A stretch of DNA of 64,000 nucleotides, taken from assembly GCA_002245135.1 (NCBI GenBank), contig NGBS01001166.1:186001-250000 (forward strand), given 5' to 3'. How positions within the stretch are numbered: position 1 is the first letter of the stretch; each line of letters starts with the position of its first letter. Under the pieces are notes generated by a model. That model was given only the letters and a program-made list of their open reading frames with translations. It was not told the origin of the DNA and did not search any database. Of this stretch, positions 15,835 through 62,365 are shown in pieces. The translations under genes and the position numbers were made by a program. Source of the stretch: Proteromonas lacertae. Lineage: Eukaryota.

Positions 15835-16544
15835 ATGCAATTTAAAATTGACGATTTAGATGTTATTTTCCCGTATCATACCCATTATTACATTCTTATA
15901 GATATGAAAAGATATATCCAGAACAATATAAATACATGAAGTCATTAAAAACAGCATTGGATGCTAAGGGACATGCTTTATTGGAAATGCCTACTGGTAC
16001 TGGTAAAACTGCCGCATTACTGTCATTAATTACTTCATATAAAGAAAAACATAAAGAAATAGGAAAATTCATTTATTGCACACGTACTGTGCATGAAATG
16101 GATCAATGTATAACAGAACTAAAGCAAATAGAAAACACAAGGAAATTAATGAAAGGTGATTCATATAAGTCACTATTAGGATTATGTCTTAGTTCTAGAA
16201 GTCATTTATGTATAAATGAAGAAGTAATAAATAGTGAAGATTATATTGATTCACTATGTCGAGGAAAAACAGCAAGATGGGTAAGACAACAATCCAAAAT
16301 AGAGCATCCAGATTCAATGGAAGGATTATGTGAATATTTTGAAAATTTAGATACATCCATAGATTCAATAGCTTTAAAAAGAACAATTTATTCTTTAGAA
16401 GATTTAAGGAATTTTGGCAAGTCAAAATCAATTTGTCCATACTTTCTAGCTAGACAAATGTTACTATATAGTGATGTAATTATATTCAATTATCAATATT
16501 TATTAGATCCAAAAGTATCATCTTTAATATCATCAGATTTAGAA

Positions 16545-16589
<45 letters not shown>

Positions 16590-18345
16590 GAATAGAAAGA
16601 ATGTATAGTTGTATTTGATGAAGCTCATAATATTGACAGTGTTTGTGTAGAATCATTAACAGTAATATTAGATACAAATATCATAAAGAAAGCTGAAAAA
16701 CAAATACATACTTTAGAATCAAAGGTACAAGATTGTGAAAGAAATCAATCCAATCGATTGAAAGAAGAATATTTGAAATTAATTGGTGAATTAAACAGCC
16801 AAACCACTGGCAATAATAATAACAGTAATAATAGCAATGAAGTAGTAATATCAGGAGGTGAAGAACCATTAGCTACACCAGTAATAACGAATGAAATATT
16901 ATCAGAAATTGTGCCAGGAAATATAAGAAAAGCAAAGAAGTTTATTGAAATATTAAGTACAATATTGGCATTTATAAAAGATAAAATATGCAGTGATACG
17001 AATACAGAGATGGAAACTCCATTGTCGTTTAGATTAACACTTCAACAAGTATATATATAATTTACTATTATATAATACTATATTTATATAGAAAACTGGT
17101 ATTGATGAAAGAGTATTAAAAGCATGTAGTGCAAGACTAAGTTCATTATTATTAACACTGCAAGCTACCAATTATGAAGAATTTCACGAACTTTCTGAGA
17201 TTGCTAATTTCTGCACTTTGATTGGAACATATTTAAAAGGATTTATGATAATTAAAGAAACTTACAATCCATTCAGTAAAAATGATAATATATTAGATCC
17301 AATCTACGAATTAGCTTGTTTAGATGCAAGTATTTCAATCAAACATGTGTTTGACTATTTCCAATCCGTTATTATCACATCTGGTACTTTATCACCAATA
17401 GAATTCTATCCCAAAATATTAGAATTCCAACCAAAACAAATAGAATGTTTTGAAATGTCAGTGCATCGTAATTGTCTTTGTCCTTTAGTAATATCTAAAG
17501 GAAGTGATATGAATGATATCACTACAAAATTCGATGTAAGACACGATAGTGCAATAGTTAGAAATTATGCAGATTTGCTATTATTATTAGCTAAGACAAT
17601 TCCTGATGGTATTACATGGTTTTTCCCTTCATATGATTATATGGAGTGGATAATTGGACAATGGGATGATATTGGTGTTTTAAAGAGTATAATGGAATAT
17701 AAATTAGTATTCTTTGAGACTAAAGATGCTGTAGAAACATCCTGTGCTTTGAATAATTATAGAAGAGCTTGTGATAGTGGAAGAGGAGGTATATTTCTAT
17801 CAATTGCAAGAGGGAAAGTAGCTGAAGGTATTAATTTTGATGGTCATTATGGAAGATGTGTTGTTATTTGTGGAATTCCATTTTTGTATATTTATTTATT
17901 TATTTATTTATTTTTATATGTAGATCCTCTGAATCAAAGTCGTTAGAAGCGAGAGAGAATTATTTAAGAAGTGAATATAATATCAATGAAAATGAATTCT
18001 ATATATTTGATGCAATGAGACAAGTATATTTTTTAAATTATTTTTGTTTTTATTTAGACTGCTCAATGTACTGGCAGAGTAATAAGAGGTAAGAATGATT
18101 ATGGTGTTGTTATCTATGCTGATAAAAGATATACAGAAGAAAAGAGGAAGAAATTACCTGTTTGGATCAATCAGTTCATGAAATCTGATTATACAGATCT
18201 TTGTCCTTTTGAAGCTGTTCAATTAATTAAGAAATATCTTAAAGAAATTGTTCAACCTGTTGATGATGAAGAAGCAGATATAAATGAATTATCATCTCTA
18301 ACTAAATCACAGTTGGAACAATACGTTAAGATTAATCATTTATAA
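15835..18345 (+). CDS. ERCC2: TFIIH helicase XPD/Rad3
   Basis: FPYEKIYPEQ, LEMPTGTGKT, CPYFLAR, FDEAHNID, TSGTLSP, ARGKVAEGINF and GRVIRGK.DYG. Confidence 0.97.
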
Positions 18346-20988: not shown

Positions 20989-21801
20989 ATGGAACTGTAT
21001 GAGTTAACTCCACCATTATGGGATGAAATAAAGAGCCGATTGAATCCTTCAGAATGGACTGAGGTACAAAGGATGCTTGGCTTTGATTTGATAAATGAGA
21101 ATCAAGTATTATATCTGCAATATAATTTCTATATTTGTATAGCAATTATATGAAGAAGCGAAATGTTTATTAGATATATTAGGAGAAGCTCAAATACAAA
21201 ATGAAGAATTGAGGGGAAGAGTAACCCAACACTCAATACTAGATGGAGCTGCTAAGTCATATCTAGAAAGACAAATATTAGATTTCATTGATCAGTTCAG
21301 AGTAAGACCAATAGCTCCAATTCTTGAATATCCTTTTTAAAAACAACACTAAAACATCCAGTTCCCTTAATAGAATATACTACTAAAGAAGAAAAGATAG
21401 TTAAATACATACAAAACAAAAATGCTAGTCCATCAAGGCCACAGTCAGCTTTATCTAGACCAGGCAGTGCATTCAGACCAGGTTCAAGTAGATCCTTTAA
21501 TAGTTGTCCTGAGCCTTATGCACCGTTAAGATCTATCTCAAAATCAATAAATGTATATTCTATAGATAAAGTAGCTGATCCATTGAAAGGTCTTTTGAGA
21601 GAAGAACAAGATAGGTATAATGAAGATATAGAGATGTTGAGAGAAGAATTAGAGAATGAAGTGACTTTTAAATGTGAAATTGAATCTGAGAAGAAAGAAC
21701 CATCTATAAAGGATATAAGAGCATTATCTCAGAAGCTGGAGAAGGAATTTAAGAATATTGATAATCCTGCACTTAATAATAACAATAATATTGAAACATG
21801 A
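20989..21801 (+). CDS. CCDC24-like coiled-coil protein (largely missed by the ORF track)
   Basis: MELYELTPPLWDEIKSRLNPSEWTEVQRMLG...L.EE...L.DIL; one GT-AG and one AT-AC intron join it to ORF 21583..21801. Confidence 0.7.
21328..21380 (+). other. U12-type AT-AC intron, 53 nt
   Basis: Canonical ATATCCTTT donor, branch TTCCCTTAAT at 21362-21371, 3' TAC; GA|T restores the frame. Confidence 0.9.
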
Positions 21802-41016: not shown

Positions 41017-43221
41017 ATGGAACAGAATCCAGGTTTTATAGAAGGTTTAAAAGTACCTGATTATCAAAATGAAAAACGTATTTATTTAGTGTTATTGTAA
41101 ATAGAGCAATGCCTGAGTTTTCTAAGAGATTTTACTAGTGATGATCCTGAAACAAAACAGCCAATAAAGAAATATATGAAACAAATTGATTCTATTGCTT
41201 CAAGGGAAAGTTCCAGAGTTCTTATTGAATTAGACGATGTTTTTGCTATGGGTGATGATGTATTACTCGACCACATTGAAAATAACACAAGAAGGTATGT
41301 CAATATATTTGCTGATGCAATTGATGAATTAATTCCACAATCAAATCACATAATCGATAGTACTAGTGATATAGCCGATATTTTGGAAGCACATCGAGCT
41401 TCTTCAGGGGAAGGTGCACAATTGCCAAAATCATTAACACGTAGATACCAAGTAAACTTCAAAGCAAGAAGATCAATCAAACCAAGATCAGTAAGAGATA
41501 TTAAAGCATTAGATATTGGTCATTTGACTGTATTAAAAGGTGTAGTAACTCGTGCATCAGCAGTTAAACCACTAGTCAGAGTAGCTGTCTACACTTGTGA
41601 TGTTTGTGGCTTTGAAATATACCAAGAAGTCGATAGTAGAACATTTTTACCATTAACCGAATGTCAATCACAAAAATGTAAAACCAATAATCAAAAAGGA
41701 GATTTACACTTACAAACAAGAGGTAGTTCCTTTGATAAATATCAGACTGTTACAATACAAGAATTAAGTGAACAAGTTCCAAGTGGTGATACTCCCAGAA
41801 CAATGACATTACAATTACGAGGAAATTTAACAAGAAAGTGTTCACCTGGTAATATTATTACATTTAGCGGTATTTATTTACCAACACCTTATACTGGATT
41901 TAGAAGAATGAAAGCTGGATTAATAGCTGATACATATTTTGAGGTATTAGATTTAGAACAATATATACAGAACTATGAGAATACTGAAATATCGAATGAT
42001 TTAGTTGAAGAAATAAATGAAGCTAAAACTGATTCTAATTTATATGAGAAATTATCTCAATCTATTGCACCTGAGATATATGGTTTATCTGATGTAAAGA
42101 AAGCATTGTTATTACAAATGGTCGGTGGTGTGAGTAGAACAATGTCAGATAAGATGAAAATTAGAGGTGATATTAATATCTGCATGATGGGAGATCCAGG
42201 TGTAGCAAAATCACAATTGTTGAAATATATAGCAAATATATCACCAAGATCAGTCTACACAACTGGTAAAGGTAGTAGTGGAGTTGGTTTAACTGCTGCT
42301 GTGATTAAAGATCCAATTACCAATGATATTGCATTAGAAGGAGGTGCCTTGGTATTAGCTGATAATGGTATTTGCTGTATTGATGAGTTTGATAAGATGG
42401 AAGAAAATGATCGAACATCTATCCATGAAGTAATGGAACAACAAACATTATCTATTGCTAAAGCTGGTATTACAACTACATTAAATGCAAGAACATCAAT
42501 ATTAGCAGCTGCTAATCCAGTAGGAGGTAGATATAATGTTAAGAAAACTCCTCAAGAAAATATTAACTTACCTGCTGCTTTATTATCCAGATTTGACTGT
42601 GTATTTTTATTACTTGATACTCCAAATGCTGAAAGTGATAAATATTTATCTCAACATATATTGCATTTACATCAATATGGAAAAGCACCTGATATTGGTT
42701 TTGTACCTTTTAAACCTGAGTTTTTAAGAGCTTATATATCAGAAGCTAAACAAATATATCCAACCATTTCACCTCAAGTTGCGCCTTATATTATAGAATC
42801 CTATATTCAATTGAGAAAGATAGATAATGAAGCATCTAAAGGAGATAGAGTTAAATCATTGATCACTCCTAGACAATTGTTGTCGATACTTCGATTTGCA
42901 CAAGCATTAGCAAGATTAAGATTTAGTACCACTGTTGAACCACCTGATATTGATGAAGCTGTTAGAATAGTGAGGATGTCAGCTAATAGTAGTGAAGTTG
43001 ATGAAGATAGATCAGCATTTAGAAATGATCCTTCTTCAAGATTGTATAGTTTGATTATTGAGAAAATGAAAGGGACAAATTCTATAAAAATGGCTGATAT
43101 AGAGAATTTTGCTACTTCTAATGGCTTTAGTAAAGAACAATTTGATAATTGTATTAAAAGTTATGAAGATATGGGTATTTGGCAAAGAGCACGTAATTCT
43201 ACTACGCTAGAGCTTGTTTAG
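41017..43221 (+). CDS. MCM7: DNA replication licensing factor MCM7
   Basis: NTRRY, YTCDVCGFEIYQ, MKAGL.ADTY, GDPGVAKSQLL, IDEFDKM and NLPAALLSRFD. Confidence 0.97.
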
Positions 43222-43411: not shown

Positions 43412-46400
43412 ATGAGTTTGTTTTCATTCATTCTGTTTGTTAGTTTAGTTTTAGGTGGTGTAGATGATGCTGTAGGCTATGTGTTTAACAGTCCAGGAGG
43501 ATCATTAGAGCTATATATAACAGAATTTCTTCCATCTCTTGGCTTTAAAGCCCCTGCTTCATTTTATTATGTTACAAGTTCTAATGAGCAAGATTTAGAT
43601 ACAGAAATCGTTAAACTTGCCAAAATCAACAAGAGAGTGATTTTCGGTTATGTTCCCCAATTCAAACCCAGTATAATCAATAAAATTGCAAAAAAGAATT
43701 CTGTCGTTTTTATTACACCAGCAGTATCAACAGAAGACAGTTGCTACAGTAATCTAATTCAAGGGTATTCTGTGTGCAAATCAATTTCAAGAATATTAGA
43801 GTTAATTAAGCATGATTATAAATCATTTACTATCCTTTATGATTCACAATCGAACATTAATAATTGTGCAAATCTAATACATGAGTTTCTAAATTATAAT
43901 TCATATACGAATCCATCTATAACAGAAATTGTTTCTTCCTCAGATATAGATGTTTCTAGTATAAGTAGTGATGATGTAATTTTAAACTTTCTATCAACAT
44001 CATTATCAAATAGCTTATACTCTATTTCACCTCGATCATTTAATATTATTGGATTTCAAAATATCGATATTCAACAGCATGATTTAACAAAAATGACAGA
44101 TACTTATATAGCTAGTGAAAGTAATGATGATTGTGGCTCTATAGACTATGCGACATCATCATATCCATCACCAAATATTGAACAATTTTCACTGTACATT
44201 TATAATTATTTAATTTATATAATTTTCATAGAGGTCAATCACTATTTCTATTTTTAGAGAATGCCAAGAATATTGGATTTAAAGGTCATGTTGATTTACA
44301 CAAATTATTGACATTGACACAATTTTCATTCAAATCATCAACTATTACCTTATTACCAAATCTAAGACTATCTAATAGAATATCACTCTCTAAAATAGAT
44401 AATAGTAATAAATTTATTCCAATACAGAGTATTCCAGGAATTAATGGCATATATTATAGCGATATATTAGATAATCAATATGAAATGATATGTGACATAA
44501 CAAACTACAATGATGAAGTTAAATCAACTGATTATTACGTTATATTAATAACATATTTAACTGGAGATTTATCAAAATATGATTCAAGTGTTAAAACTGG
44601 ATTAAAAATAGCATTAGAAATATTAAACAATGATAATCCAATATTGAACAGAAATACTCATCCAATCTATATGGATGCAAATAGTAATAACTTAAATGAT
44701 GAAATAATTCATTATATTAATTCATTTAATGTTATTGCTATTTATACTACAATGGAATTTACTGATTTTGAAGTATTTACAAATACTGCAAATGAAACAA
44801 TATTTGAAACTCCATTTATATATCTCAATCTAGTACCAAACGAAATAGTGAGTGATAAATACTTCTTAAATGGAATGAATATAGGAAATTTATGGAGAGA
44901 AACTAAAACAGCATTAAATCCTAAAAACATATTCTTTATAGGCAGTAAAGGAACAGTATCAGCAAATGCAATATCTTATATATCCTATGATGCTTCATTG
45001 AATGGAATTAATGTTAGAGGTAGTTATATATTAGATAGTAATACATACGAACATGCTGTAAATGCGTGTAATGAGATTGAAGCAGAATGTAAACTACATA
45101 GTGATTGTTATATTATTACATTTATGGAAAGGAATTATACTTTGAAGTTTTATGAAGAATATAAGATTGCAAGATTAATATATCCAATTGTGTCTTATAA
45201 TTTAGATGAATTAATGATTAATTCTGTTAATAAAACATATGTATAATTATATTTTTCTTTTTATATTGTATTTAGTATGAAAACCATTATGTTATTGGAT
45301 ATTTCTTCAATGAAATGGAACTATCAGATGATGTTGATAATCGATTAAGCGATTACATTAAATCAAATTCATTTTATAAAGATTTTATTGTTACTTCAAA
45401 CACAGCTATTTTATATTCAGAAATAATGCTATTATCATCTGTATATTATTGTATTCTAAATTATATGAATAGGTTATTGATATTACAAGGCAAATATCCA
45501 AAGAAAAGATTAAATATTCAATGAAATATGGTTATGTAATAGGCATAGGAGGTGTAATAAAAGGAAATGATGAAGGATATGCTGATTTTAATGTTCATAC
45601 AGGAAAGATTAGTAATGGAAAGATAGAAGAAATTAGTAAATCATTTTTTGTAGAAGTATCAGCTGTCTTTAGTGATTCAACCAAATATTATGATAGAGAT
45701 TCAAACCAGATTAAAACAAGAGAAGTTAAGACAATATCTTTCTTATATGTGAGAAATGAAAAGAATGAAGATAGAATCAATCATTATGTATTATATGATT
45801 CATTTGTGATTGAATATTTGAATAATCAATACAATGGTGTAGCTGGTTATAGAATAAGAACAGCATTTCCTGAATTATATAGTAATGAAGACTTAAAGAA
45901 TTATGTTCAATCTGTTGCTAATAGTGATGATTTATTGTTATTTGTTGGTACTTTGACTTTTGAAGAGAGAGAATCAATTCAACAGCTGTTGATTGATAGT
46001 AATAAGTTGTTATTGAGTATTCATCCTGCTGTTGGAAATCAATGTTATAGAAATATTATTCAAATATCATTTTTTTTCGTTTATTTTTAGCATTTATCTG
46101 TTTCTATAATTCTAGTTTATTTTGGAGTATTGCCTCAACATTATATATTTACAATTATTGCATATTGGTATAAACACAGTAATAATTGCATTATGATATA
46201 TGGAGATAATGAAGTTAATAAACACACAGCAAATTACACTTTAAAATACACTGAAGAAATAAAGAATTATAAATGTGTTGGTGTATATGTATCAGATAAT
46301 TCAAATCTTACAGAAATCATTGAAAATGAAATTGTCAATAAATATACTGATGGTGCTGCAATAATAACAGCTTTAGATGAAAGAACAGAATCATTTCTAA

Positions 46401-47265
46401 TAGAAATGAGTAATTATAGTAGCAGTAATAATTATCTTTATCCAATTATAATCACTGATTATATTGAATATAAATACTTCGAATTAAAATATAAAGAATA
46501 TTATGAGAACGTTTATTTTACATCATCTTATTCATATCATTTAGATAATGAAGAAACAAGAACAATGTCAGAAACTATTACTAGTTACTATGGCAAATCA
46601 AAAGAACTAATGACAACAACAACACTTACATTATATTCTGCTTTGAGACTATTTACTGAAAGTTATCCAAATAATTATAACAACAACAGCAATGAAATAA
46701 GATATAACATGTATGATACTGTTATTACATCTCCAATGGGTAAGATTATTGTTGATACAAGTAATCTAATGAGAATGTATACAATGATGATTCAGATAAA
46801 GAATAATAACAGTGAAATAATACTAAGTTCTGATTATAGCTATTATGAATCACAATTTGCAGATATTGTATAATTTATCATTATATATATATTAATAATA
46901 GTTTAATAATGAATATTTAACATGTCATTTTGAAGAAGGTTCAATATCTGATGTAATAAAGGAAGAGGTTCAAGAAATAGGTATTTGGCTTGAAGATGAT
47001 GAAAGTGTTAGATTCACAGTTCAAGAATATCTCTATTATAATAAGTTCACATATGGAACTACTTATGTTGAAAAAACAGTATATTGTTCTGATGAAGAAT
47101 CGATATTTAAAATGGTTAATGATAGTTCAATATCATATATACTTTCAACATGTAATAGAACAGTCAATTCAAATATTGCTGAAGTTGCTAATGAGAAGAA
47201 TGTAAATATATTCATTTTAGAAGATCAATATGAACCAATATGTGAAAAGAGATTGTATATAATAT

Positions 47266-47297
<32 letters not shown>

Positions 47298-50200
47298 GAA
47301 ATAGTATGGTATTAGGATCTTCTCCTTCACAAAGACTCATTCCTCTAATTCAATATTTATTTACAGTAGTTGATTCAAATGTATATGTCATTATTCCACT
47401 TGCTTTCAACAATTCAATTGAAATTGATATGATACAAACCACAGTTGATGTAAATGGAGGTAAAGTAATTCAAATCCTATTCATTGATGAAGAAGATGAT
47501 AGTAAAAATGTGGCAAATGAAGTGAAAATCAGTAGTTTAATAGCTTCAATTTATAGAAATGGCAATACAGGTGGTATTATACTCAATTACCTTCATAAAT
47601 ATGATAAATACTTATTTATATATCTTGAAAATATGTTAAAATATCATACGCTTGGTCAAAATGAAAAAGAATCTGAATTTATCATTGTTTCAATGGATAT
47701 TGATAGAATCTTGGATATTGAAAATCCAAAGTTATTGGATAATCATGTTGCTTTAGGTGTGTCATACATAAGTAAAGAAACTAGTAAATTCTTATATGAT
47801 ATAAGTACAAATACATATGGAGAAGGAAATATATTAAAGAAAATAGAATCAAGAGGTTTAATTGCTATTGAATTTATATTAACTGTTAGTGTATTATTAG
47901 AGAATAGTGAAAATCATGATTTCATGGATTATATTCATATCAATGAGATTACCACATCTTTAGGAAATATTAGAATTGATTATGATAATTATTTTCCTTC
48001 AATAGTTTCCATATATGTTGCAAATACTACAAATATATTACATATAAGATATGTTTTATCCAACCAATGGCCTGGTGAAACTTATAGAATAACTTATCAA
48101 AATATCACATTATTTCCTTTTTGTGATGTTACAAATAAGAATAAAATTCAAGATAGATTGTCTATTAATGTCATTCTATTTGTTCCATTGCCAAGTAATT
48201 ATAAATTAGAAGGATATAGAATGTTACTCTCTTACTTATCAATAATTGATTATATTAACAAAAACTACAGAGTTAATGGGTTATATATAAATCCAATCGT
48301 TATTGATACAAAGGGAGGGTATGAAATAGTTAGAGAGGTATTATCAAAGATGTCAATAGAATATAACACCAAAATAGCATTGGGAATTGATAATAGTTTG
48401 AATAGGAAAGAAATAGCAAATGAATTAGATGATTATGATGTATTATTAGTATATCCAAATGATTTTGAAGGATATGAATGCAAAGAGAATATTATATACG
48501 TTGGAGTTCCATTTGCAGCTAAAGTAACTTACTTACCATGGATCTTAGGTCATTTAAATAACAAAATTTATGTTGTTTATACAGATTCATATGATAATGA
48601 TGTTATTTCTAAAATGATTAGTCATGAGTTGAATTTAAGAGGATATTCTATTGTTGGTATTTCAAAAGTACCAGAAACTAATTATATACTAAAAGAAGTG
48701 GTCAATATGGTACATATGAAGATGAGAAATGGTGGTGTAATATTATCATTCTTAAAAGGAAATGCAGCTAAAGAATTATACAAAGCATGTTATGATGAAG
48801 ATATTAAATATCCAAATTACTATATTATAAGCGATAATTTGAATGTAGCAAATATAAATAATGATGAAGGAGTGTATATGATGAATCATTATATATGGAA
48901 TACTTATCCTGAAGAGTATTATGATGTGGAAGAATATGTTAATGTTTATAACAACAAGTATACATTCATTACAAATCATACAACTAGTTTCGTTCCTGCA
49001 TTTCTTTCTGTTAAAATATTAGCATTAGCATTTCAACATATTACATTCAATGAGAATTATTCTTCTGCTTTTACAGTTGATTCTATTCTCAATAAAGTTC
49101 ATAATGTTTCAACATCACAGATTAAAATATATAACAACAATTTCGCATCTTTTACTTTGAGTATAAAACAGATTAAATATAATGAAACTTCAAAACAGTG
49201 TTATGGAGATATAATCTATAAATATCAATCAAATTCAGAACCAAATCCTTGGGCATCTACTTACAATCTAAATGGTAAATTTATATGTGATTGGAATGAA
49301 TCAAATCCAAATAAAAATGAAACAATTCCAGTGGATGCTGTTTCAATTGCATTAGTATTTCCATTAAGTGATCTGGAATTAGGTAGTTATGCAACTGATA
49401 TATTAGAATCAGCCATATCAACATTATCTGAAATAAATGATAAAAATGGAGGTGTTAATGGTTTGTATATTGATTACATTGTTTTTGATTATAAATATGA
49501 AACTGAATCAATACTAACTAAGATTGCTTATGATATATTAGAGAATGAAAATATTGTGTCTGTTTTTGGATGTTTGAGTGAAACTTGTAAGAATATTATT
49601 TCCAGTATATTGCAACAGAAATCAATTTCATTATGGTATCCAGGAACAGCATATTGTCTCAGATATGATATCTAAAATTGGTAATATAAGAACAGCAGTA
49701 TTCTTTTATTTAAGTGGATCTTTATCATCATCAGTTTTACATGAAATAGAAAATCAAGGTATTAGTTTATCTACAGTTAATCTAATTCTAATGAGATTTT
49801 CAAAAGCTGATTATTCAGATGAATTATTGATGAAATTATCAGGAGCTTTAATACCAGCAACTTATTCTTCAGATTTATCAAGTCCATTAGCAAGATCATT
49901 TCAATCAGATATGAAAGGTGGATTAGGAAATACAGTAGAAATACCAGAAGAAATGGAATATGTATATTCAGCCTTGCATTTATGGAAAAATAGTTTAGAA
50001 ACTAGTATAAAAGACAGTGGAGGTGATATAAACCCGCCAATTGAATATATTCGATTGAATATGATTGATAAAACATTTACATCTCCATCTGGTCCAATGA
50101 TCTTAGATAAAACATTATATGTAAAGAGAAGTATGTATGTATTTAGAGTTAGTGATGATGGTAAATTTATTCAAATATATCCAAAGACAGGATCAACTGT

Positions 50201-51469
50201 ATTATATGATCCAATTCCATATCCAGATGGTGTTCCAGCAGAATGTAATTTTGGTAAAAAGAAAGTATATTTTGAATATAATACCATGATGAAAGCTGTT
50301 GCTTATGTGTTAATGAGTATTGCAATAGTTTTATCATTTTGGTCATTGTTATTCACATATGCATCAAGAAATAAAATGATTATTAAATCATTTGGTAGAT
50401 CTTATAGTTTTATATTTGCAGTACAGTTGTTGATACTATCATTAGCAGTAATACCAATGGCAATTGCACCAACTAAAAGTAATGGGATTTGCACAGCAAG
50501 AGTTGTATTCTTAGGTTTATGTGTAAAAGGAGTGTTAGGTTTAATGATAGCTAAATGTATGAAAATATATAACAGATATAGAAGATTGAAAAGAAACATT
50601 AAAAAGAGTAGAATAAAAATGGTTAGATTATTATTTACTTGGTTGTTTTTTGAATTATTAGAATCATTAATATTGATATTGTGGTTTACTTTAGATCCAA
50701 ATGAATATGAAGAAACGTATAGTCAATCTCTCAGTGGTTATTTTTTCGATGAGTATATTAGAGAATGTACTACATCAACTCCATTTTTGTATATAATATC
50801 TATTATATATTTCATGAATATATTTCTAGAATCGTTGAATTTATTACTGATGGAATTCCATTAATAATTCTGTTATATATCACTAATGTAATAAAGAATA
50901 AAATTAATGATCATAATGAAGGAACAGCAATGTTTATTTCTAGTTGTGTGATATATATCTTTTTTTCATTAACATTTATCTTGTTATTAGCTTCATCTTA
51001 ATGTTTTTTACCTGTTTTTGGTGTTGTTATGACTGTATTAGATTTTTATGTTAATTCAGAACCTAATACTGTTTTGTTATTAAGAGCAATGGGAATTGAA
51101 ATTACTCAAATTTTAATGATTATGTTACAATATGGAAATATCTTTTTTTTTACACAATTTTCTTAATGATGTTATTTAATTCTATTGTTTACTAAAAATG
51201 ATTAATGTTTATATTGATGATGATTCAAACAGAATAACACAATCAGGCAGCCAAGCAAGTAAAACTGAAAAGAAATATCCTTTTCATATCTTATTCATCC
51301 TATTTATTTTCTTAATTTATTCAATCTGTTAGATTCTTCCCATCATTCTTCTAACTCTCAAAACAAAACTCAAACCTCTACATTCCTTACATCACACATG
51401 AAATCTATGTTTACAACATCTACATTAAATGCAATTACAAAAAATCAATCATCAAGGAAGTTGTTATAA
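43412..51469 (+). CDS. Giant class-C-like 7TM receptor with about 6 tandem AmiC/UrtA-like periplasmic-binding (Venus flytrap) domains
   Basis: Signal peptide MSLFSFILFVSLVLG; repeated motifs such as EIN..NGGVNG, VFGC.S, YPNDFEGYECKENIIYVG and F.SPSG; C-terminal hydrophobic helices with C..R, L...K..KIY and HNEG; frame break at about 49640. Confidence 0.75.
51138..51192 (+). other. U12-type AT-AC intron, 55 nt
   Basis: ATATCTTTTT donor, TTTTCTTAAT and TTATTTAAT branch candidates, 3' TAC; gives QYGIKMINVY at the end of the last TM helix. Confidence 0.8.
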
Positions 51470-51523: not shown

Positions 51524-54500
51524 CTATTTAATATTATAAAAATGGTTTGATAATTCTTTCTTTAATTCTTTACCAATTCCATCTATTGTTATTGATTTAA
51601 GTGATGAAAACGATTTTAAAAACGATACTAATTCTAATTTATCTATCTCTTCTTTTATTGTTATTGTTAATAGACTTAAACATTCAAACACTTCTTTGTC
51701 TTCTGTCATCAATCTTAATTCTTCTTCATTTAACTTATTTCCTGATAGATTTATCTTCTGCAATGGCTTATGAACTTTTAATCTTTCTATTAACATTTTT
51801 AATCCTCTTTCACTCATTCCTATATCTATTTCAATTAAAAAACTATGTTATATTCATAAAATACTTGAAATATTTAATATTAATGAATAATTATCATCAA
51901 TAAATTTATCAAAATTTTCACAAATAATCTCTATTCCTTCATCTCCAATTGGATTGTTAAATATTGAAATATAATTTAAATCTTTTGGTATAGATTGAAT
52001 TAATTCTGATAATCCTTTATAACTGATATGATTATTGGATAAATCAAGTGTTTCATAATCAATCTGTTTTATGATGGGAATGTGAGAATCATTGATATTT
52101 AAATCTATTGCATTATATACCTTGATTTAATACTGGATAAATCATAGTATTTATACATATCACTTTTTTTAGTACAATAGTCTAGATAATACTCCAATTC
52201 TTTATTTTTCCAAGATGAATTTTTCATCTGAATGAACGGATATTCTTCATTTTCTAACGATTTTGAACATATTGATTTTAATCCATTCATTTTGATATTA
52301 TTCTCATTGAGATTAATTACATTACACTCTCCAATTAAATATAATATATCTGTAAACATTACGGCACTTTCATCATTTATTGATGTATTACTCAAATTAA
52401 GATCACTGTCTATCATTATATCCAACTTCTCTTCCAACAATTTTAATCCAATATTACCAATCGGATTATCTATTACACAGAATAATAAAGATTATATAAC
52501 AATATATATATATATATATATATACTGTTAATAATTAATTGTTCAATATTATCATTCTCTTTCACATAATTCATTAAATAATCTATACCTTTTGAATCAA
52601 TATTATTATCAGCTAAATCAAGTACTTCAATCTTTTCATCAGCAATTCTTAAACCATCAACTAAATATTTCATTCCTAATGACGATAATCCCATTTCTAT
52701 AAAACATTTATAAAACAACAAACTATACTCGAACAATTCAGATAACTTCCTAATAAATGGATATGCAGAGATAAAATTCTCATTCCTTCATCTCCTATTT
52801 CATTTTCATATAATTGAAGTTCTTTTAGATTTGGAAATGAAGATAAATTGTTTATCAGTATTTCTACACTTTCACATGTCAGATTATTATCTAAACAAAT
52901 GGAAATTTAAAAACATACAACTCAAATCTAACACTTCTATTTCTTTAAATTCATTTAATCTTAAAGTAATGAATGATTTGAAAAAATCATCATTAATTCC
53001 ACAATGATTCAGATTTAATCCATTATTTTTGTATTTGACAAATTTAATTAACTCTGGAATATCTTTGTCAATCAACAATTCTTTATTTCTTCCATAAATA
53101 TCAAATACTATTTTTGAAATAGAAAATTTTGAGAATACTGCTTTTAATCCACTAGAATAAATATCCCAGTTGTATGTAATATTTATTTTCTTTAGATTTG
53201 GATATTTAAATAACTCTTCTGATAATATTATCATTGATTTATCATTTAAATTCATTCCACAAAGATTCAATTCATTCTTGTCATTTATTAATAAATGAAA
53301 TATGGAATTAATAATTTGAATCCTATTGGACCAATTGGATTATCTATTTCATAATAATCAATACAAATAGAAAAAAATCAATACATTCAAGATTTACATA
53401 TTTAAGTTTCATAAATGGAATTGATTTTACAAATGATTCTATAAAACGATATGTAAGATTACAACTACATAAATTCAACTCTTGCAGATTTGATATTTGA
53501 TTATATAATGCTCCAAATAAAGGCTGGTATCTGATCTGAATATCAAGAATTTCTAAACAAGTAAATAATACTACAATAATACCAAATTTTAGTTTTTTAA
53601 AATTGGATAGTTTTAGTAATCTAAAAAAATAATCCATCCCTTCTTCACATAAACAAACACAAAGTTTATTAGCAATGACTCTTTCATTTAAATAATGAAG
53701 AAGGAGATTGAAAATCATTTCATCTAAACAACAAATCTTGTTTTCTTTGTTTTTGTGATAAATTTGAAATTTCAGTTTATCTTTTATTGATTCATCTCTT
53801 TTGATTAGTTTCATCATTAATAATATCGATAATATTCTATCATTTGGTTTATTGTTGTAAGATTCAATCAAACCATCTCTCATTAATTCATTCTTATTAT
53901 ATTCTATATAATAGTCTCTTTGAGTATCTAATGGAGTTATTTCTAGTAAATAATCATTATTGAAGAATGTATATTTTCTTTCATTATATATCATTATATT
54001 ATTATTTTCATCTCTAAATATTTCACTCACTTTTATCATTTCTTTTCTCAACTCTTTTAAACTCAATCTTTCTTCATTCTTCACATTCAACATTCTCTCC
54101 ATCATCTCTTCCATCATATCATCACATTCTACATCTATACGATATTTACATCTCAGAATTTTATTCAGTGTTCTGTTGATATTATTATCTTCATTAAATG
54201 GTAATTTTTTGTTTATCATTTCATATAATATACAGCCAATAGACCAAATCACACTTTTATCATTACATTCTAATCCATTCAATTCTTCAGGGCTTTTGAA
54301 GCAGATATCATATAATCTTATATCTTCTTCTTTTCTCAATGTGTTTAAAAACAAATCACAGATCTTTATTTCACCTTCACTTTCATATACTATGTTACTA
54401 CTCTTCAAATTGTTTATTATTACATCATATTCACTCAATACCACTAATATATCACATATTGAACATATAATAGCACAAATATCACCAGTTATCAACGAAT

Positions 54501-54820
54501 TATTATGAATTATTTCTTCTAAGTCTCTTTCATAATATTCTCTTGACAATATCATATGATCACCATATTTATTCATCTCAAACACTTTTGAAGGATATAA
54601 TAACGATTTACAACTATCTAACAACAAGGAGTCAGTCTCATAGAATTTTAATATATTCTTTTCTTTTATATCACTAACATTTAACATTTTCAATTTTTTA
54701 ATATTACTTCCATATTCTACAACTATATCTACTTCAGTTACACTCTTTTCTATTCTCTCTTTTAGCTAATAATAATAAATCAATAAAAATACATCTGAAT
54801 TTGAGGGTAATATCGAGGAT
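51524..54820 (-). CDS. Pseudokinase + ribonuclease-inhibitor-type LRR protein; 5' end apparently cut by the viral insertion
   Basis: NNLKSSN, CDLF, SPE and IWSIG kinase remnants; LRRs NPIGPIG, NEIGDEG, NNIDSKG, NPIGDEG; the frame extends upstream through a 27-nt intron to the element edge with no ATG in that upstream part. Confidence 0.75.
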
Positions 54821-55996: not shown

Positions 55997-58900
55997 ATGA
56001 ACCCTTTCATCCCTCCTTATTATTATTATTCAAACTTTAATTATTATAGTCCACCACCATTTGGAGCACCTTATATTCCTCCTCCACAAAATTATGGATT
56101 TAATCCCATGCCCATGCCATATCCAGGTATGGCACCTCCTAATATGTATGAACCACCTCCACCTATTCAAAATATTCCAGTAGTTAGAAATTATGTTCCA
56201 CCAAGAAATCTAGTTACAAATACAAATCCTGGTTTCAATTATTATCCTGGAAATATAGGAGTAGATTCAACACCTCAAATTAATATTCCTGAACCAGGAT
56301 TTGTAACACCACCTCCCAAGAGAAGATTAGATTTCGAAAACATAAGTCCTCCAAAAATACAAAGAAAAGGAGGTATGCAGGTTCAAATGCCTAATCCAAA
56401 TCCTAATCCAAATCAACCTGTTGTTGTTGTTAATCAACCTCCACCAAATGCACAACAGCGTAATAGAGTAGCTGATTTAAATTTATCTTATCAAGAAGAA
56501 AGAGATTTAAGAGAAGCAAGTGATATATTAGAAAATCATCCTACTAAATTATTAAAATTACCATATGAAAAGAGATTATATTATATGGACTTAATTCAGA
56601 GAAGTACAGATAATTATAGTAGAACATATCAAATTAACTTTTTAAATGATGTAAATGGTAAAGATCCAGATGCTGTTGTTGAAATTATAACTGATCCTAG
56701 TAGCCCATTAATTACTAAAATAAGAGAATATTTAGAAGATGTTAAATATATAAAAGTAACATTAAGTTTTAGAAGTGGTTATATAGGAGCAGACGATCCA
56801 GATTATAATAATCCAAATGGTAATAAAATTACAAATTGGGTATTCTTAGAATGTAGACCTGTAGTTATTACAGAATCAGAAATGAATGTTGCACATAAAA
56901 TATTAAAAGATAGAATAAGAACAGAAATGGGACCTTTATGGCATACTGAAAAATCAAGTTTAAAATTTAGACATGTTGGTGAAGTTGAAGTTCAATTAGT
57001 CAAAGCAACTGCTATGGCAGGTAGTGGTAAAAATAAAGAACTTCCAGATTGGATTAGAAATAGAAAATGTGTTATATCAATAGATAATAATAAAGAAAAT
57101 GATCAATTATGTTTTCTATATGCTATAGCAGCAGCATTTTTTCATGGTAATAATAATAATAAGAATTTAAATAGAGTAGAACAATATAAAGAATATATTA
57201 GAGTTAACTACAATTATAGTATGTTATATTTCCCAGTAGATCCTATAAAACATAAAAAACAAATTCATGAATTTGAAACAATAAATCATATAACATTAAA
57301 TATATTCAAAATAACAGATAAAGAAGTAGTTCCAATATATGTAACACATATAGATAAGTTCAATAATTATCCACATGTGAATTTATTATATAATGATAAA
57401 CATTATTCTACTATTACAAAATTAAATGTAATATTAATACCTAAAGGAAAGAAGTGTAAAAATGGTTATCCTAGATGTAATTATTGTTTTGCTTTATTAT
57501 CAACAGATGAAAAAAGAATACAACATGAAAAATATAATTGTCAACAACATAAAGGTATTATAAGAAATTTCCCTGAGAAAAATATTCAATTAGAATTTAA
57601 GAACTTTAAATATATGCAACTAATACCTATAGTAATATATTGGGATACTGAAGTTTATCAGGAGAAAGTAACAGATCCAATTTTAAATGAGAAAGGTATT
57701 TTATCAAAGCATATATTATCCAGTTGGTGTTTATATGTTGTATCAAAATATCCTAATATATATCCTAATAAAATTGAGTATGATTTTAAAACACCTAAAG
57801 ATAATGAAACAGATTTAGAGGATAGATTAATAGCTAAATTTATGGAAATACAAAAAGAAATATTAGATTTATATGAAGAAAAATTAAAAAATCCTGAAAA
57901 AATGATAGGATATAATAGAGAAGATCCTAAAAATAAATTGAATTATTGCATATACTGTAAAGAACCATTTGATTATAGGAATAAGAATAAGAAACCTGTT
58001 TTACACCACGACCACTTTAGTGGACAATATATAGGTAGAATATGTAATAATTGCAACTTCCATGTATGTTTAAATAATATGCCAATCCCTTGTATTGCTC
58101 ATAATTCCAAAAATTATGACAATAATTTCATTATTAGAGGATTGTCCAGATGGGATAATAAGTTAAGAGATGAATTTTGTAAAGAAAATAATATTGATCC
58201 TAATGTAAATTATGCTTCAGATACTGAATCTGATAGTGATACTGAAGAAGAAGATAATACTAGTTATACTAATTCTATTCCTGTTCCACATCAAGATAGT
58301 GATACATTTACTCCATTACCTCCTTATACTAATGGCTTTATAACAGCAAATAAAATAAAAGATTATGTGAAAAATTTAAGAAAAGAAAAACAAGAAGAAA
58401 AAGATGATAATAATAATTTCAGTATGAGTCCATTACATGATTCTTTAAGTGATATGGAAACTCAAGAAGCTGAAAGTGAAGTAATCCAAATTAATAATGA
58501 AGAAGTTAATGCATTGTTAGAATTAGAAGAAATGTTAAGAAGAGATAGTCCTAGAAATGCAGAAGATGTTATAGATGAAATAGATGAACAATCTGCTTAT
58601 AGAATTATTAAATGTAAAGATGGTAAAATAAGAAAATATAAAAACAAAAAACAATATAAATCACAATTATCAGTATTACCCAAAACAGATAATAAATTTT
58701 TATTAATAAAGTTCAACAAATTATACTTTATGGACTCTTATCAATTCTTACCAAGTTCTTTAGATTCTTTAACAAAGTCATTATATACTCAAGCAAAAAG
58801 AGATAATGGAAATTATCAAAAATATTTCAGTTATGTATATGAAGATATTTATAAAAAATATTCTGCTCCTGGTAAATTGGATCATGATATGAATATTGAT

Positions 58901-60913
58901 GCTTTTATCCATAAATGGTGTTTATCTAAAGGATATTTTCCATATGAATATGTAGATTCATTATCTAAATATTTTAATACTTTTGAACTACCTCCTAAAG
59001 AAGCATTCTATTCAAAGTTAAAAGATGATAATACTGTAACAGATGTTGAATATGCTAGTTGTCAGGCTTTATGGAAAGTTATTAGATGTGATAACTTAAT
59101 GGATTACAATTTATTTTATCTCAGATTAGATGTTCTTACATTAACATGTGTATTTGAACATTTTAGAGATGTTATATGGAATAATTTTACTTTAGATCCA
59201 TTATGGCATTGTAGTTCACCTGGTTTATCTTGGAGTATATTCCTTAAAAATTGTGATGTAAAAATTGATTTAATAAGTGACTCTGATATTTATGACTTTA
59301 TACATTCTGGATTAATAGGTGGGATTTCTATGGTTGGTAGTATGAGATATGCAGAGTCTTGGAATCATTATCAACCTCAATGGCAAGAGAAAAATAAAAA
59401 GGAAGTACAGGATCCAGATAATCAAACATATATTATGTATATGGATTATAATTCTTTATATCCAAGTACTATGGCTAGCATGAAGTTACCATATAGTGAA
59501 TTTGAATGGATTGAACCAACTACTGAAAATGTAAAGAAAATATTATCATTACATTACTATGAAGAACAAAGAGAAAAATATTACAATACAGAATGGATTA
59601 ATAAAAATATGTATGGATATATTCTAGAAGTAGATATTTCTCCTCCTAGTAATAGTAATGAAAGAAAAAAATTTGCTGAATATCCTTTGTTACCTGAAAG
59701 AAAAATAGTTGACTATGATAATTTATCTGAAATACAAAAGAAATGGGCAGAGTCTTTAGGATTAGTTTCAGAAGTTAAAAATAATATTGATAAAACATAT
59801 AAAGTTAAAAAGTTAAAGTCAAATGTTCCTAAAATAGTATGTGATTTAACAACAAAATACAACTATGTTGTTCACTATCAATATTTGAAATTTGCATGTG
59901 AAATGGGTTATGTTATACATCATATTCATAGAATTATCAGATTTAAAGAGTCTAATTATGCACATAACTTTGTAATGATGAATCATAACTTAAGAAGACA
60001 AGCTAAATTAGAAGGAAGGGATGCCGATGCTGATACTTTTAAGCTTATTCTAAATAGCGCTTATGGAAAGACATGTGAAAATACTGAGAATAGATGTACC
60101 TCCAAATTGGTTAATAATGAAGAAGACTTTTTACAGTGTACTTCCAATCCATTTTATAGAAGTTTTATTGCTATAGATAATAGTAACTTACGTATATGCA
60201 AATTTCAAAAATATAAATGCACTATTGATAAACCATCTTATATTGGTATGAGTATATTATGTGAATCTAAAAGGTTAATGGCTCAGTTCTGGTATGGACA
60301 TTTATATAGGAAATATGGGAGTAGTTTAAGATTATTGATGAGTGATACTGATAGTTTCATATTTATGGTTCAAACTAGAGATTTCTATATGGATATTATG
60401 AACGATCCACATTTTGAAAAGAAAGTTGATACTGGTAATCTTAATAAACAATACTTAATAACTAGAGGTATACACTATTCAAATGTTAATCAAAGTTCAG
60501 AACTTAACTTATTAAAAATAGAAGAAAATAAGAATGGTTTATACTCTATTACTAGATTTGCAGGATTAAAACCTAAAATGTATGCCTATGAAAAAGTAAG
60601 AGTAGACGATGATATACATTGTGTTACACATGATAGTAGAGCTAAAGGAGTTACAACTGGATATAGAATTAAAACTTGTGATTTTGACTTTTATAGAAAA
60701 ATATTAACAGATGCTGAAGATGAAAAGTCTTACAGAGTAGATAAAATCAAACAATATAGTTTCAGAAGTGTTAACCAAACTTTATATACTATGGAACAAA
60801 ATAAGTTGGCTTTTAGCATATTTGATTCTAAAAGGTATTATTTAGATGTTTATCATAGTATTCCTTTTAATGATTATTATCCACCTATTATTAATAACAC
60901 TACTAATGTTTGA
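55997..60913 (+). CDS. polB: Protein-primed family B DNA polymerase (Polinton type), 1638 aa
   Basis: ExoI WDTE, ExoII HNSKNYD, KGYFPYEY, ExoIII YLRLDV, motif A DYNSLYP, motif B KLILNSAYGK, motif C SDTDS and LKPKMY. Confidence 0.95.
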   Translation: MNPFIPPYYYYSNFNYYSPPPFGAPYIPPPQNYGFNPMPMPYPGMAPPNMYEPPPPIQNIPVVRNYVPPRNLVTNTNPGFNYYPGNIGVDSTPQINIPEPGFVTPPPKRRLDFENISPPKIQRKGGMQVQMPNPNPNPNQPVVVVNQPPPNAQQRNRVADLNLSYQEERDLREASDILENHPTKLLKLPYEKRLYYMDLIQRSTDNYSRTYQINFLNDVNGKDPDAVVEIITDPSSPLITKIREYLEDVKYIKVTLSFRSGYIGADDPDYNNPNGNKITNWVFLECRPVVITESEMNVAHKILKDRIRTEMGPLWHTEKSSLKFRHVGEVEVQLVKATAMAGSGKNKELPDWIRNRKCVISIDNNKENDQLCFLYAIAAAFFHGNNNNKNLNRVEQYKEYIRVNYNYSMLYFPVDPIKHKKQIHEFETINHITLNIFKITDKEVVPIYVTHIDKFNNYPHVNLLYNDKHYSTITKLNVILIPKGKKCKNGYPRCNYCFALLSTDEKRIQHEKYNCQQHKGIIRNFPEKNIQLEFKNFKYMQLIPIVIYWDTEVYQEKVTDPILNEKGILSKHILSSWCLYVVSKYPNIYPNKIEYDFKTPKDNETDLEDRLIAKFMEIQKEILDLYEEKLKNPEKMIGYNREDPKNKLNYCIYCKEPFDYRNKNKKPVLHHDHFSGQYIGRICNNCNFHVCLNNMPIPCIAHNSKNYDNNFIIRGLSRWDNKLRDEFCKENNIDPNVNYASDTESDSDTEEEDNTSYTNSIPVPHQDSDTFTPLPPYTNGFITANKIKDYVKNLRKEKQEEKDDNNNFSMSPLHDSLSDMETQEAESEVIQINNEEVNALLELEEMLRRDSPRNAEDVIDEIDEQSAYRIIKCKDGKIRKYKNKKQYKSQLSVLPKTDNKFLLIKFNKLYFMDSYQFLPSSLDSLTKSLYTQAKRDNGNYQKYFSYVYEDIYKKYSAPGKLDHDMNIDAFIHKWCLSKGYFPYEYVDSLSKYFNTFELPPKEAFYSKLKDDNTVTDVEYASCQALWKVIRCDNLMDYNLFYLRLDVLTLTCVFEHFRDVIWNNFTLDPLWHCSSPGLSWSIFLKNCDVKIDLISDSDIYDFIHSGLIGGISMVGSMRYAESWNHYQPQWQEKNKKEVQDPDNQTYIMYMDYNSLYPSTMASMKLPYSEFEWIEPTTENVKKILSLHYYEEQREKYYNTEWINKNMYGYILEVDISPPSNSNERKKFAEYPLLPERKIVDYDNLSEIQKKWAESLGLVSEVKNNIDKTYKVKKLKSNVPKIVCDLTTKYNYVVHYQYLKFACEMGYVIHHIHRIIRFKESNYAHNFVMMNHNLRRQAKLEGRDADADTFKLILNSAYGKTCENTENRCTSKLVNNEEDFLQCTSNPFYRSFIAIDNSNLRICKFQKYKCTIDKPSYIGMSILCESKRLMAQFWYGHLYRKYGSSLRLLMSDTDSFIFMVQTRDFYMDIMNDPHFEKKVDTGNLNKQYLITRGIHYSNVNQSSELNLLKIEENKNGLYSITRFAGLKPKMYAYEKVRVDDDIHCVTHDSRAKGVTTGYRIKTCDFDFYRKILTDAEDEKSYRVDKIKQYSFRSVNQTLYTMEQNKLAFSIFDSKRYYLDVYHSIPFNDYYPPIINNTTNV

Positions 60914-60997
60914 AACTTTTATATTTCTTTTTATTATTATATTTTTATATTATTATTATTTCTTTTGTTTTCTTTATATTATAAAAAATAAAAAATA

Positions 60998-62365
60998 ATG
61001 TATTTCGGATGGGATCCTGCTAAAGCATTTTTTAATACTATGAATGATGTAGGTAACTTAATGGATAAAAATATACAACATTTACCTAAACAACCTAAAT
61101 ATCCTGAATCATTGCAATATTATATGAATTATGGTAGAGATGGTATACCTAGAGAACCTCCTACTACTGACTATAAATTATATCCTAATCCTGAATATTC
61201 TCAATATCAAAATCGTTTACAACAACTATATAATAAATATCATTATTTAAGTGATAGAGATTTTATTAAAATGGTAATGAATCCTGCAGATAATAATGAA
61301 GTACCACCACCTATAGATGCTATAAAAGAATTTTTAGCTAGACAACCTGGTCATCAAATAGTAGACTTTCAGTATAAAAAGGATAATCCTTTCGTTAGTA
61401 TTAAAAAGCCTGGTTGGTTCCAGATGGATATAGTTTATTTTTTACCTGAAACACATCATCTGTATTTTATTGAAACTAACTCTCGAAAAGTATGGGTAGT
61501 ACCTTTGAAAAGAGAAGATGGAAATACTTGTTTAAATGCTTTCTTTTCTTGGTATTATAAAGAAGATCAAGAAGCTTTTTTAAATCCAAACTATCAACCT
61601 AATATAGTAGCTAAAAGAAGAGTTATTAGTATATTAAGTGATCAAGATGATAGTTTTAATAAAATAAAAGAATTTTGTGATACAGAAGGTATAAATACTT
61701 ATCAAAAAAATCCTTCAGAACATAGAATAATGAGTGTATTAGATAGAAGTGTATCTATGGTTAAAAAACTATTATATAAACATCTTGTTGAAATAGACTT
61801 TCCTGATCCCTTTCGTTATAGAAATCAAACTCATGCTAAAAGCTTTCCACCTAGTGCATATATGAATCAGTGGCTTACTAACTTTAATCATGAAGTATAT
61901 AAAGTAGTACAAGACTATAATAATAAACCTCATCCTGCATTAAAAGGATATACTCCTAATGAAGTATATCATTCTGAATTACTACAGAAAAGAGTATTAG
62001 TTGAAAGCATAAATAAAAATGTAGATAATGAATTTAAACTAGAAGATAAACAACGATTTAAAGTAGGCGACTATGTTAGATTTAAAGAAAGAAGAAGACA
62101 ATTAGATAAAATAACTACTTGGAGTGATGATGTTTATATGATTATAAATAAGTTTAGATTTTCATATCAAATAGGTGATACTAATGGTAACTTTGTACCT
62201 AATGTTAGTAATCAGAGGTTTAAGCATTATGAATTAGAATTAGTAGAAAGAGCGCAAGATAGAAATGCTTATTTTAGAGCGTATCAAGCAAACAGAAGAT
62301 TTTATAATCAACATTTTAGAAAAACATTAAAAAGACCAGGACTCAAAAGAAAGGGAATAGTATAA
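60998..62365 (+). CDS. Retroviral-like (rve) integrase of Polinton type, 455 aa
   Basis: FQMDI, ET.SRK.W..PLK, ILSDQD, LDRSV..VK, YNN.PH..L.G.TP and an SH3-like FKVGDYVR...WSDDVY.I. Confidence 0.92.
   Translation: MYFGWDPAKAFFNTMNDVGNLMDKNIQHLPKQPKYPESLQYYMNYGRDGIPREPPTTDYKLYPNPEYSQYQNRLQQLYNKYHYLSDRDFIKMVMNPADNNEVPPPIDAIKEFLARQPGHQIVDFQYKKDNPFVSIKKPGWFQMDIVYFLPETHHLYFIETNSRKVWVVPLKREDGNTCLNAFFSWYYKEDQEAFLNPNYQPNIVAKRRVISILSDQDDSFNKIKEFCDTEGINTYQKNPSEHRIMSVLDRSVSMVKKLLYKHLVEIDFPDPFRYRNQTHAKSFPPSAYMNQWLTNFNHEVYKVVQDYNNKPHPALKGYTPNEVYHSELLQKRVLVESINKNVDNEFKLEDKQRFKVGDYVRFKERRRQLDKITTWSDDVYMIINKFRFSYQIGDTNGNFVPNVSNQRFKHYELELVERAQDRNAYFRAYQANRRFYNQHFRKTLKRPGLKRKGIV

Follow-up and report, generated by a model that had tools for sequence, protein, structure and literature searches.

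A probable giant class C receptor gene of Proteromonas lacertae with a chain of UrtA-type flytrap modules and an apparent out-of-frame deletion

A 64,000-nucleotide stretch of Proteromonas lacertae DNA (GenBank assembly GCA_002245135.1, contig NGBS01001166.1, positions 186,001 to 250,000), hereafter the window, carries on its + strand a locus (43412-51469, in coordinates of the window as used throughout) that constitutes one gene. This gene probably belongs to a family of giant G protein-coupled receptors (GPCRs) of class C, where a chain of flytrap modules of the UrtA type is followed by a seven-transmembrane (7TM) domain, and the copy in the window would have lost ~3.2 modules by an out-of-frame deletion of ~3.7 kb. 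UrtA serves the urea transporters of bacteria as their binding protein.

The gene contains six GT-AG introns of 32-50 nt, which start with GTA(T/C)A, end with TAG and have a GC content of 8-16%, next to several introns of the predicted U12 type. The ATG at 43412 begins MSLFSFILFVSLVLGGVDDAV and opens a hydrophobic, signal-like N-terminus, behind which lie six recognisable UrtA/AmiC-type periplasmic-binding (flytrap) units of ~380 aa each. A hidden Markov model (HMM) made from 351 units cut from relatives was run on the spliced gene model and recovered 6/6 units, with E-values ranging from 3.4e-12 (unit 1) to 2.4e-69 (unit 5). GT-AG introns fall inside unit 1 (44194-44231), unit 2 (45241-45275 and 45441-45472) and unit 4 (47255-47304), and unit 3 contains both a U12-type intron (46064-46120) and a GT-AG intron (46868-46901). 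After 4/5 complete units a C-terminal motif is found (CDI, CHF, CDV, CDW), and the C-D-W motif is also present in UrtA itself (structure 7s6e). A first-pass annotation, made from the sequence alone, had described a signal peptide, about six units with a recurring marker motif, cysteine linkers and a 7TM region. The signal-like N-terminus and the motifs lie where it placed them, and all six units are there; its sixth unit, however, is a frameshifted chimera, and complete family members have nine. Its linkers correspond to the C-D-W-type motif, which is UrtA's own and not the cysteine-rich domain of class C receptors. The Pfam scan that it recommended, expecting repeated binding-protein domains plus 7tm_3, was borne out in part: besides 7tm_3, Peripla_BP_5 was detected in three ORF (open reading frame) pieces only, namely 46091-46873 (4e-08), 47300-49675 (4.7e-30) and 49578-50864 (9e-11), and nothing was returned for the raw ORF pieces holding units 1, 2 and 4.

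Sequence families and fold support an assignment of the units to the UrtA/AmiC type, as the annotation had proposed, and not to the ANF type that class C receptors of animals possess. UrtA (TIGR03407, the binding protein of the urea ATP-binding cassette (ABC) transporter) is the best NCBIfam family of the matching window pieces and of 45/45 members of alignment A1, which comprises unit 5 and single-domain matches. With 66.3 bits, the 783-aa piece (47306-49654) does not reach the family cut-off of 492.75 bits, nor does unit 5 by itself with 53.3 bits, while the relative P0002 scores 2,996 bits across nine stretches (~333 per unit). The closest solved sequences in the PDB are 8tg1, the UrtA entries 7s6e, 7s6f and 8hic, and AmiC (1pea/1qnl). 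When unit 5 was modelled with AlphaFold2 from an alignment of 45 rows (predicted local distance difference test score 87.1, predicted TM-score 0.87), strands and helices alternated in the model as they do in binding proteins with two lobes. When this model was searched with Foldseek, ranks 1-6 were urea-binding proteins (8tg1, 7s6f, 8hic, 7s6e) with E-values of 3e-23 to 3e-22 and query-normalised TM-scores of 0.71-0.75, followed at lower ranks by aromatic-acid binders and AmiC and then, near 1e-16, by the flytraps of GABA-B, CaSR and mGluR. Unit 5, the unit for which the fold was modelled, is thereby predicted to adopt the type I periplasmic-binding fold that the annotation had expected, with solved urea-binding proteins as nearest structures.

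Retention of UrtA residues differs strongly between units. A signature was compiled of 33 columns that are at least 85% conserved in 44 single-domain UrtA-like proteins, chosen by conservation and not by urea contact, and of these unit 5 keeps 16/33, unit 3 15/33, unit 4 7/33, unit 2 4/33 and unit 1 0/33. As much of the signature is lost, binding of urea or amides by the window units should not be assumed. The units of P0001, another relative, keep 15-21 of the columns and those of P0002 22-32/33, which makes urea or a similar small amide a fair guess for the ligand of P0002. The UrtA module type and this retention in P0002 also make it reasonable to infer that the flytrap module is of bacterial origin by transfer. 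The annotation's idea of an acquired bacterial domain is retained to that extent; the transfer itself goes beyond what unrooted trees can show. In a 50-row unrooted tree, which carries no taxon labels, the single-domain proteins form one clade (SH-aLRT, the Shimodaira-Hasegawa-like approximate likelihood ratio test, 96) adjoining the units of P0301. A microbiome-metabolite sensor, as also suggested by the annotation, is unsupported, with nothing pointing to a microbiome setting.

Downstream of the flytrap units, a complete class C 7TM domain is predicted to be encoded, in agreement with the 7TM region seen at first pass. The exon for transmembrane helices (TM) 1-5 matches Pfam PF00003 (7tm_3) at 69.0 bits (cut-off 33.5; E 6.4e-19; profile positions 2-175), and its closest solved chain is mGluR4 (E 4.3e-06). 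The spliced C-terminus has seven hydrophobic segments on the Kyte-Doolittle scale, a count that requires the removal of three predicted introns, including two of the U12 type, to place all helices in one frame. A 7TM HMM of the family matches this C-terminus over positions 3-270/274 (E 1.7e-79).

The 783-aa exon, used as query in an exhaustive search without profiles, retrieved 266 proteins at E<=1e-3, the best of which are giants of 1,900-3,745 aa. Pfam applied to 20 of the best relatives detected repeated Peripla_BP_5, with 7tm_3 also present in 8/20. Architectures were further counted with our own profiles in 150 representative relatives listed of the 266 matches. At least two full units were found in 29/150 and a 7TM domain in 8/150, all eight with at least five units; the combination of a 7TM domain with a single unit occurred in 0/150. 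Relatives carry five to nine units plus the 7TM domain in single uninterrupted ORFs, and on this ground the annotation was right to see a single giant gene rather than several. The ORFs of P0001, P0151 and P0154 start just after window intron 47255-47304 and several homologue ORFs end exactly at window intron 50789; it follows that these ORFs represent genomic exons from homologous genes built in the same way. A search from the distant member P0002 gave two complete proteins, P0301 (4,080 aa) and P0302 (3,909 aa, labelled 'urea transport system substrate-binding protein' by JGI), each with a signal-like N-terminus, nine units and a 7TM domain. The 7TM domain of P0011 is nearest to GABA-B2 (E 8e-15). 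P0301 additionally has precomputed PF22562 and PF24280 domains, and P0303 (2,216 aa, from a transcriptome set) combines four units with PF07699 and has no 7TM domain; UrtA-type arrays thus exist within further architectures as well.

The deletion becomes visible in the comparison with P0001. Residues 1-743 of this protein align to 47429-49654 with 70.9% identity and residues 1979-2360 to 49647-50792 with 77.0% identity, the two homology blocks being in different frames and overlapping by 8 nt. For residues 744-1978 (1,235 aa) there is no counterpart at that level anywhere in the window. Because P0001 has these 1,235 extra residues between 49654 and 49656, the comparison shows what would be a ~3.7-kb out-of-frame deletion in the window copy. 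The missing residues represent the remainder of unit 6, units 7 and 8 and the first half of unit 9 (~3.2 modules). The sixth unit is accordingly a chimera in which the start of unit 6 is fused, with a shift of frame, to the end of unit 9 (C-part 49656-50285), and this fused module lacks at least HMM positions 106-181. The upstream frame ends at the TAA at 49673-49675. A flytrap array in frame with the 7TM domain is thus found in the homologues and not in the window, where the frames differ at 49655/49656 and the stop at 49673 follows. In a unit tree, the units of P0001, P0004, P0005, P0007 and P0011 cluster by position (SH-aLRT 95-99 for each of five positions), and window unit 5 pairs with unit 5 of P0001 (support 100). 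Since units group by position, the long array predates these proteins, and the long form would be ancestral and the short form of the window derived. The window copy would likely yield no receptor. What is predicted is no product at all, or at best a secreted ~2,000-aa protein that bears five flytraps and is separated from the 7TM domain.

Several observations weigh against this interpretation of the window copy. The 538 codons after the break are open and their splice signals are kept, and similarity to P0001 is 77% after the break versus 71% before it; the downstream part being open and no more diverged than the upstream part, the lesion is of recent date, spurious or bypassed. Rather than the orthologue, P0001 might be a paralogue. 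Position-wise orthology of the nine units between the subfamily of the window gene and P0002, P0301 and P0302 was not recovered. Two cryptic introns that would restore the frame are possible on paper, a GT-AG intron at 49656-49695 and an AT-AC intron at 49668-49740.

The deletion, or its 1-nt frame offset, could be an artefact of assembly, amplification or base calling, or be limited to one allele, in which case an intact nine-unit or an in-frame six-unit receptor exists. We estimate this to be unlikely, yet well within consideration. It agrees with the fully open 7TM part downstream, with its intact U2- and U12-type splice signals and its undiminished similarity to P0001, and with the 8-nt overlap of the homology blocks at the junction, as short overlaps also mark chimeric amplification products. 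The long form is moreover the rule among the members examined in the four nearest clusters (4/4, 2/2, 8/8 and 11/12, the twelfth being a 1629-aa fragment). However, the units are only ~20-25% identical in protein, which makes a collapse of repeats by the assembler unlikely, and at the junction there is no long homopolymer to provoke an error in indels.

Alternatively, the shortened gene may still be used, with a ribosomal frameshift or one of the two cryptic introns restoring the frame; the rescued receptor would consist of five whole flytraps, then a linker module that is broken, and a 7TM domain. Either candidate intron connects both frames without a stop, AT-AC introns are in use in this genome and the downstream ORF is intact. 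This explanation is nevertheless improbable. The candidates start with GTCTCA and ATATCTAAAA, unlike the introns of the genome (U2-type GTA(T/C)A...TAG; U12-type ATATC plus T-run), both would delete residues conserved with P0001, and the fused module, in the absence of HMM positions 106-181, would hardly be able to close on a ligand at the membrane. That the locus instead holds several separate genes, for secreted binding proteins and a short class C receptor, could be read from the division of the ORF pieces by stops and frame changes and from the missing Pfam matches of units 1, 2 and 4, but is very hard to credit, as all breaks except 49655 are bridged by short AT-rich introns (GC 8-19%) whose ends are standard, a signal peptide is present in unit 1 only and homologues pass through five to nine units into the 7TM domain in single ORFs.

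Apart from the deletion, the window gene appears intact once the predicted U12-type introns are removed. Introns of this type have AT-AC ends and the 5' consensus /ATATCC(T)TT, and their branch site, which resembles TCCTTAAC, lies 10-15 nt before the 3' end. Three T-rich stretches of 55-57 nt in the gene begin with ATATC followed by a T-run. Introns 50955-51011 and 51138-51192 start with /ATATCTTTTT, end with AC and have an upstream CTTAAT/TTTAAT box, and so possess the U12-type features; 46064-46120 (AT end) and 51286-51332 (AG end) are weaker candidates. In unit 3, an in-frame TAG at 46088 lies inside intron 46064-46120, removal of which gives the junction CYRNIIQ/FGVLPQ, in line with the unit consensus. 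With this AT-AT intron the unit HMM scores 142.5 bits, the best of four splice models, the three alternatives giving 116.6-125.2 bits. In TM6, an in-frame TAA at 50999 lies inside intron 50955-51011, and after its removal every residue of TM6 is collinear with P0005 and P0007. The 7TM HMM then reaches 255.8 bits, the top of five splice models (others 222.1-244.2 bits), and a GC-AG intron at 50991-51041 (244.2 bits) and a 99-nt GT-AG intron (222.1 bits) were rejected. Behind TM7, where the frame changes, removal of intron 51138-51192 yields LQYG/IKMINVYIDDD, which parallels LQYGIKIGNVYFDEE of P0005 (LQYGIKIGNVY). The frame of the tail, together with intron 51286-51332, is the least certain part of the gene model. 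Elsewhere in the window, a near-perfect AT-AC intron of 53 nt (21328-21380, +) lies at the start of a CCDC24-matching ORF (/ATATCCTTTT ... TTCCCTTAAT, 10 nt, AC). On the basis of this intron and the three or four in the receptor gene, the genome would use minor-type introns of ~47-57 nt. The standard genetic code fits the window. For the in-frame stops at 46088 and 50999, a non-standard code and eliminated sequences of the germline type were rejected as explanations, because both stops lie in predicted U12-type introns and the other stops are the TAG ends of ordinary introns. Two practical lessons follow: the AT-AC introns of this genome mimic in-frame stops, and the deletion is visible only by comparison with a close homologue. 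The features are collected in Table 1.

Table 1. Positions of the features of the receptor gene in the window
Feature	Start	End	Strand	Remarks
Start codon and predicted signal peptide	43412	43471	+	hydrophobic N-terminus; MSLFSFILFVSLVLGGVDDA
Unit 1	43568	44523	+	degenerate UrtA-type flytrap; unit HMM E 3.4e-12, HMM positions 52-382
Unit 2	44530	45643	+	unit HMM E 7.8e-30
Unit 3	45800	46958	+	unit HMM E 1.1e-45; Peripla_BP_5 4e-08
Predicted U12-type intron in unit 3	46064	46120	+	57 nt, AT-AT ends; /ATATCATTTTTTTT ... TTTAT/
Unit 4	47097	48139	+	unit HMM E 3.2e-19
Unit 5	48158	49306	+	best-preserved flytrap; unit HMM E 2.4e-69; Peripla_BP_5 4.7e-30
Unit 6, N-terminal quarter	49337	49654	+	HMM positions 5-105 (49337-49648), E 6.2e-23; end ...SLWYPGTAY
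Putative deletion junction and frameshift	49638	49675	+	upstream frame matches P0001 to 49654; downstream (+1) from 49647/49656
C-terminal half of membrane-proximal unit (= homologue unit 9)	49656	50285	+	HMM positions 182-387, E 4e-32
Class C 7TM domain	50295	51137	+	three exons (to 50788; 50830-50954; 51012-51137)
GT-AG intron within 7TM	50789	50829	+	
Predicted U12-type AT-AC intron in TM6	50955	51011	+	57 nt; /ATATCTTTTTTT ... CATCTTAATGTTTTTTAC/
Predicted U12-type AT-AC intron after TM7	51138	51192	+	55 nt; splice gives LQYG/IKMINVYIDDD
Cytoplasmic Ser/Thr-rich tail	51193	51469	+	stop TAA 51467-51469
Possible AT-AG intron in tail	51286	51332	+	

In intact members, the chain of nine flytraps would be extracellular, with the last module joined to TM1 by ~25 residues and without a cysteine-rich domain, as in GABA-B receptors. 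By analogy with class C receptors, ligand-driven closure of the last module would rearrange the 7TM domain, probably within a dimer, and thereby activate a G protein, and packing changes along the chain or in a dimer would perhaps contribute. The outer modules may bind other ligands or form a stalk. Because each position has its own orthologues in the subfamily of the window gene, the modules are probably specialised, with different ligands or structural roles, and would not be interchangeable copies. Multi-ligand sensing is conjecture. A multi-channel chemosensor, in which position-specific small nitrogen compounds are read along nine flytraps and integrated into one G-protein signal, with the window copy as a natural deletion allele, is a speculative picture to which we attach rather little weight.

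The family shares with known class C GPCRs a 7TM domain that matches 7tm_3 and the solved mGluR4/7/8 and GABA-B2 chains (in the family or the window), and, outside the membrane, a flytrap of the type I periplasmic-binding-protein kind. Between flytrap and TM1 no match to the cysteine-rich domain NCD3G was obtained (Pfam on the window pieces and 20 relatives), a likeness to GABA-B receptors. Known class C receptors have one ANF_receptor-type flytrap, whereas members of the present family have up to nine UrtA-type flytraps in tandem and their complete proteins count 3,900-4,080 aa, the window copy being frame-broken. UrtA (TIGR03407) and AmiC provide the best sequence family, the best solved sequences and the best structural matches of the window units, and have the YP..EG.EC and C-terminal CDW motifs in common with them. 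In contrast to UrtA, the window units score far under the family cut-off and retain 0-16/33 conserved residues, the receptor has no partner ABC genes in the window, and the modules form a series that is joined to a 7TM domain of the eukaryotic kind.

Recruitment of binding-protein domains is known from other lineages. According to the accessible text of the respective reports, non-animal class C receptors recruit BMP, OpuAC, SBP_bac_1 and LysR_substrate domains, with N-termini of up to 1,667 residues (PMC3251606), and those of gut fungi have type II substrate-binding-protein or pectin-lyase folds (PMC5168858); varied binding-protein domains on non-animal class C receptors are also documented elsewhere (PMC3971589, PMC12716839, in the portions available). 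The receptors of fungi, including gut fungi, and of Dictyostelium thus resemble the present family in having recruited domains of the periplasmic-binding-protein superfamily to a 7tm_3 core, but the domain families reported in the accessible parts of these papers are different ones and include no tandem UrtA-type (Peripla_BP_5) array (PMC3251606, PMC5168858). The Entamoeba histolytica protein EhVFT is, as far as its available description goes, a flytrap protein from a protist with a relationship to the binding proteins of bacteria; it differs from the present family in being a single, glycosylphosphatidylinositol-anchored flytrap without a 7TM domain (PMC12965686). Ciliates are without class C receptors in the accessible part of a survey (PMC9960496), which, like the standard genetic code of the window, makes a ciliate source unlikely. 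Our literature search, in sources available in part, met no class C receptor described as carrying a tandem UrtA-type array; supplements of GPCR surveys may list such architectures.

The window is AT-rich (GC 22-31% in 2-kb steps) and contains neighbouring nuclear eukaryotic genes, namely MCM7, Nup85, coatomer epsilon, 14-3-3, Myb, an XPD-like helicase and kinases. MCM7 is a single 706-aa ORF (41101-43218, +) with one relative at 88% identity and named proteins at <=55%, across plants, fungi, oomycetes and animals. Directly 3' of the receptor gene, 51524-54765 (-) holds ORFs that by eye resemble leucine-rich repeats, followed by a protein kinase ORF (Pkinase E 3.4e-20), and is possibly one leucine-rich-repeat kinase gene. 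A 1,638-aa ORF at 55997-60910 (+) matches DNA_pol_B_2 (E 8.4e-18; a protein-primed type B polymerase of the organellar or viral type) and is followed by a 457-aa ORF (60992-62362, +) without a Pfam match; this region (55997-62362, +) may be a Polinton/Maverick-like or linear-plasmid-like element. Introns 16530-16595 and 47255-47304 (+) consist nearly entirely of (TA)n or (TAT)n microsatellite, and when such introns are read through they produce Y/I runs in homologue ORF calls, e.g., the end of P0001 (...LYYYYYYYV). Rfam and tRNA scans of the window gave no matches. Three window ORFs had no exact match in the protein collection searched, a word-indexed protein search with 49698-50788, limited to near lengths, gave no match, and a protein atlas returned only generic binding-protein clusters.

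In this family, a binding domain of bacterial type was clearly joined to the core of a eukaryotic receptor and subsequently multiplied. According to the textbooks, a class C receptor has one flytrap per subunit that drives the 7TM domain. Nine conserved flytraps on one 7TM domain raise the question how, if at all, closure of a distant module reaches the membrane, and since the modules are of the type of a thoroughly studied urea/amide binder of bacteria, it would be easy to test single modules for their ligands.

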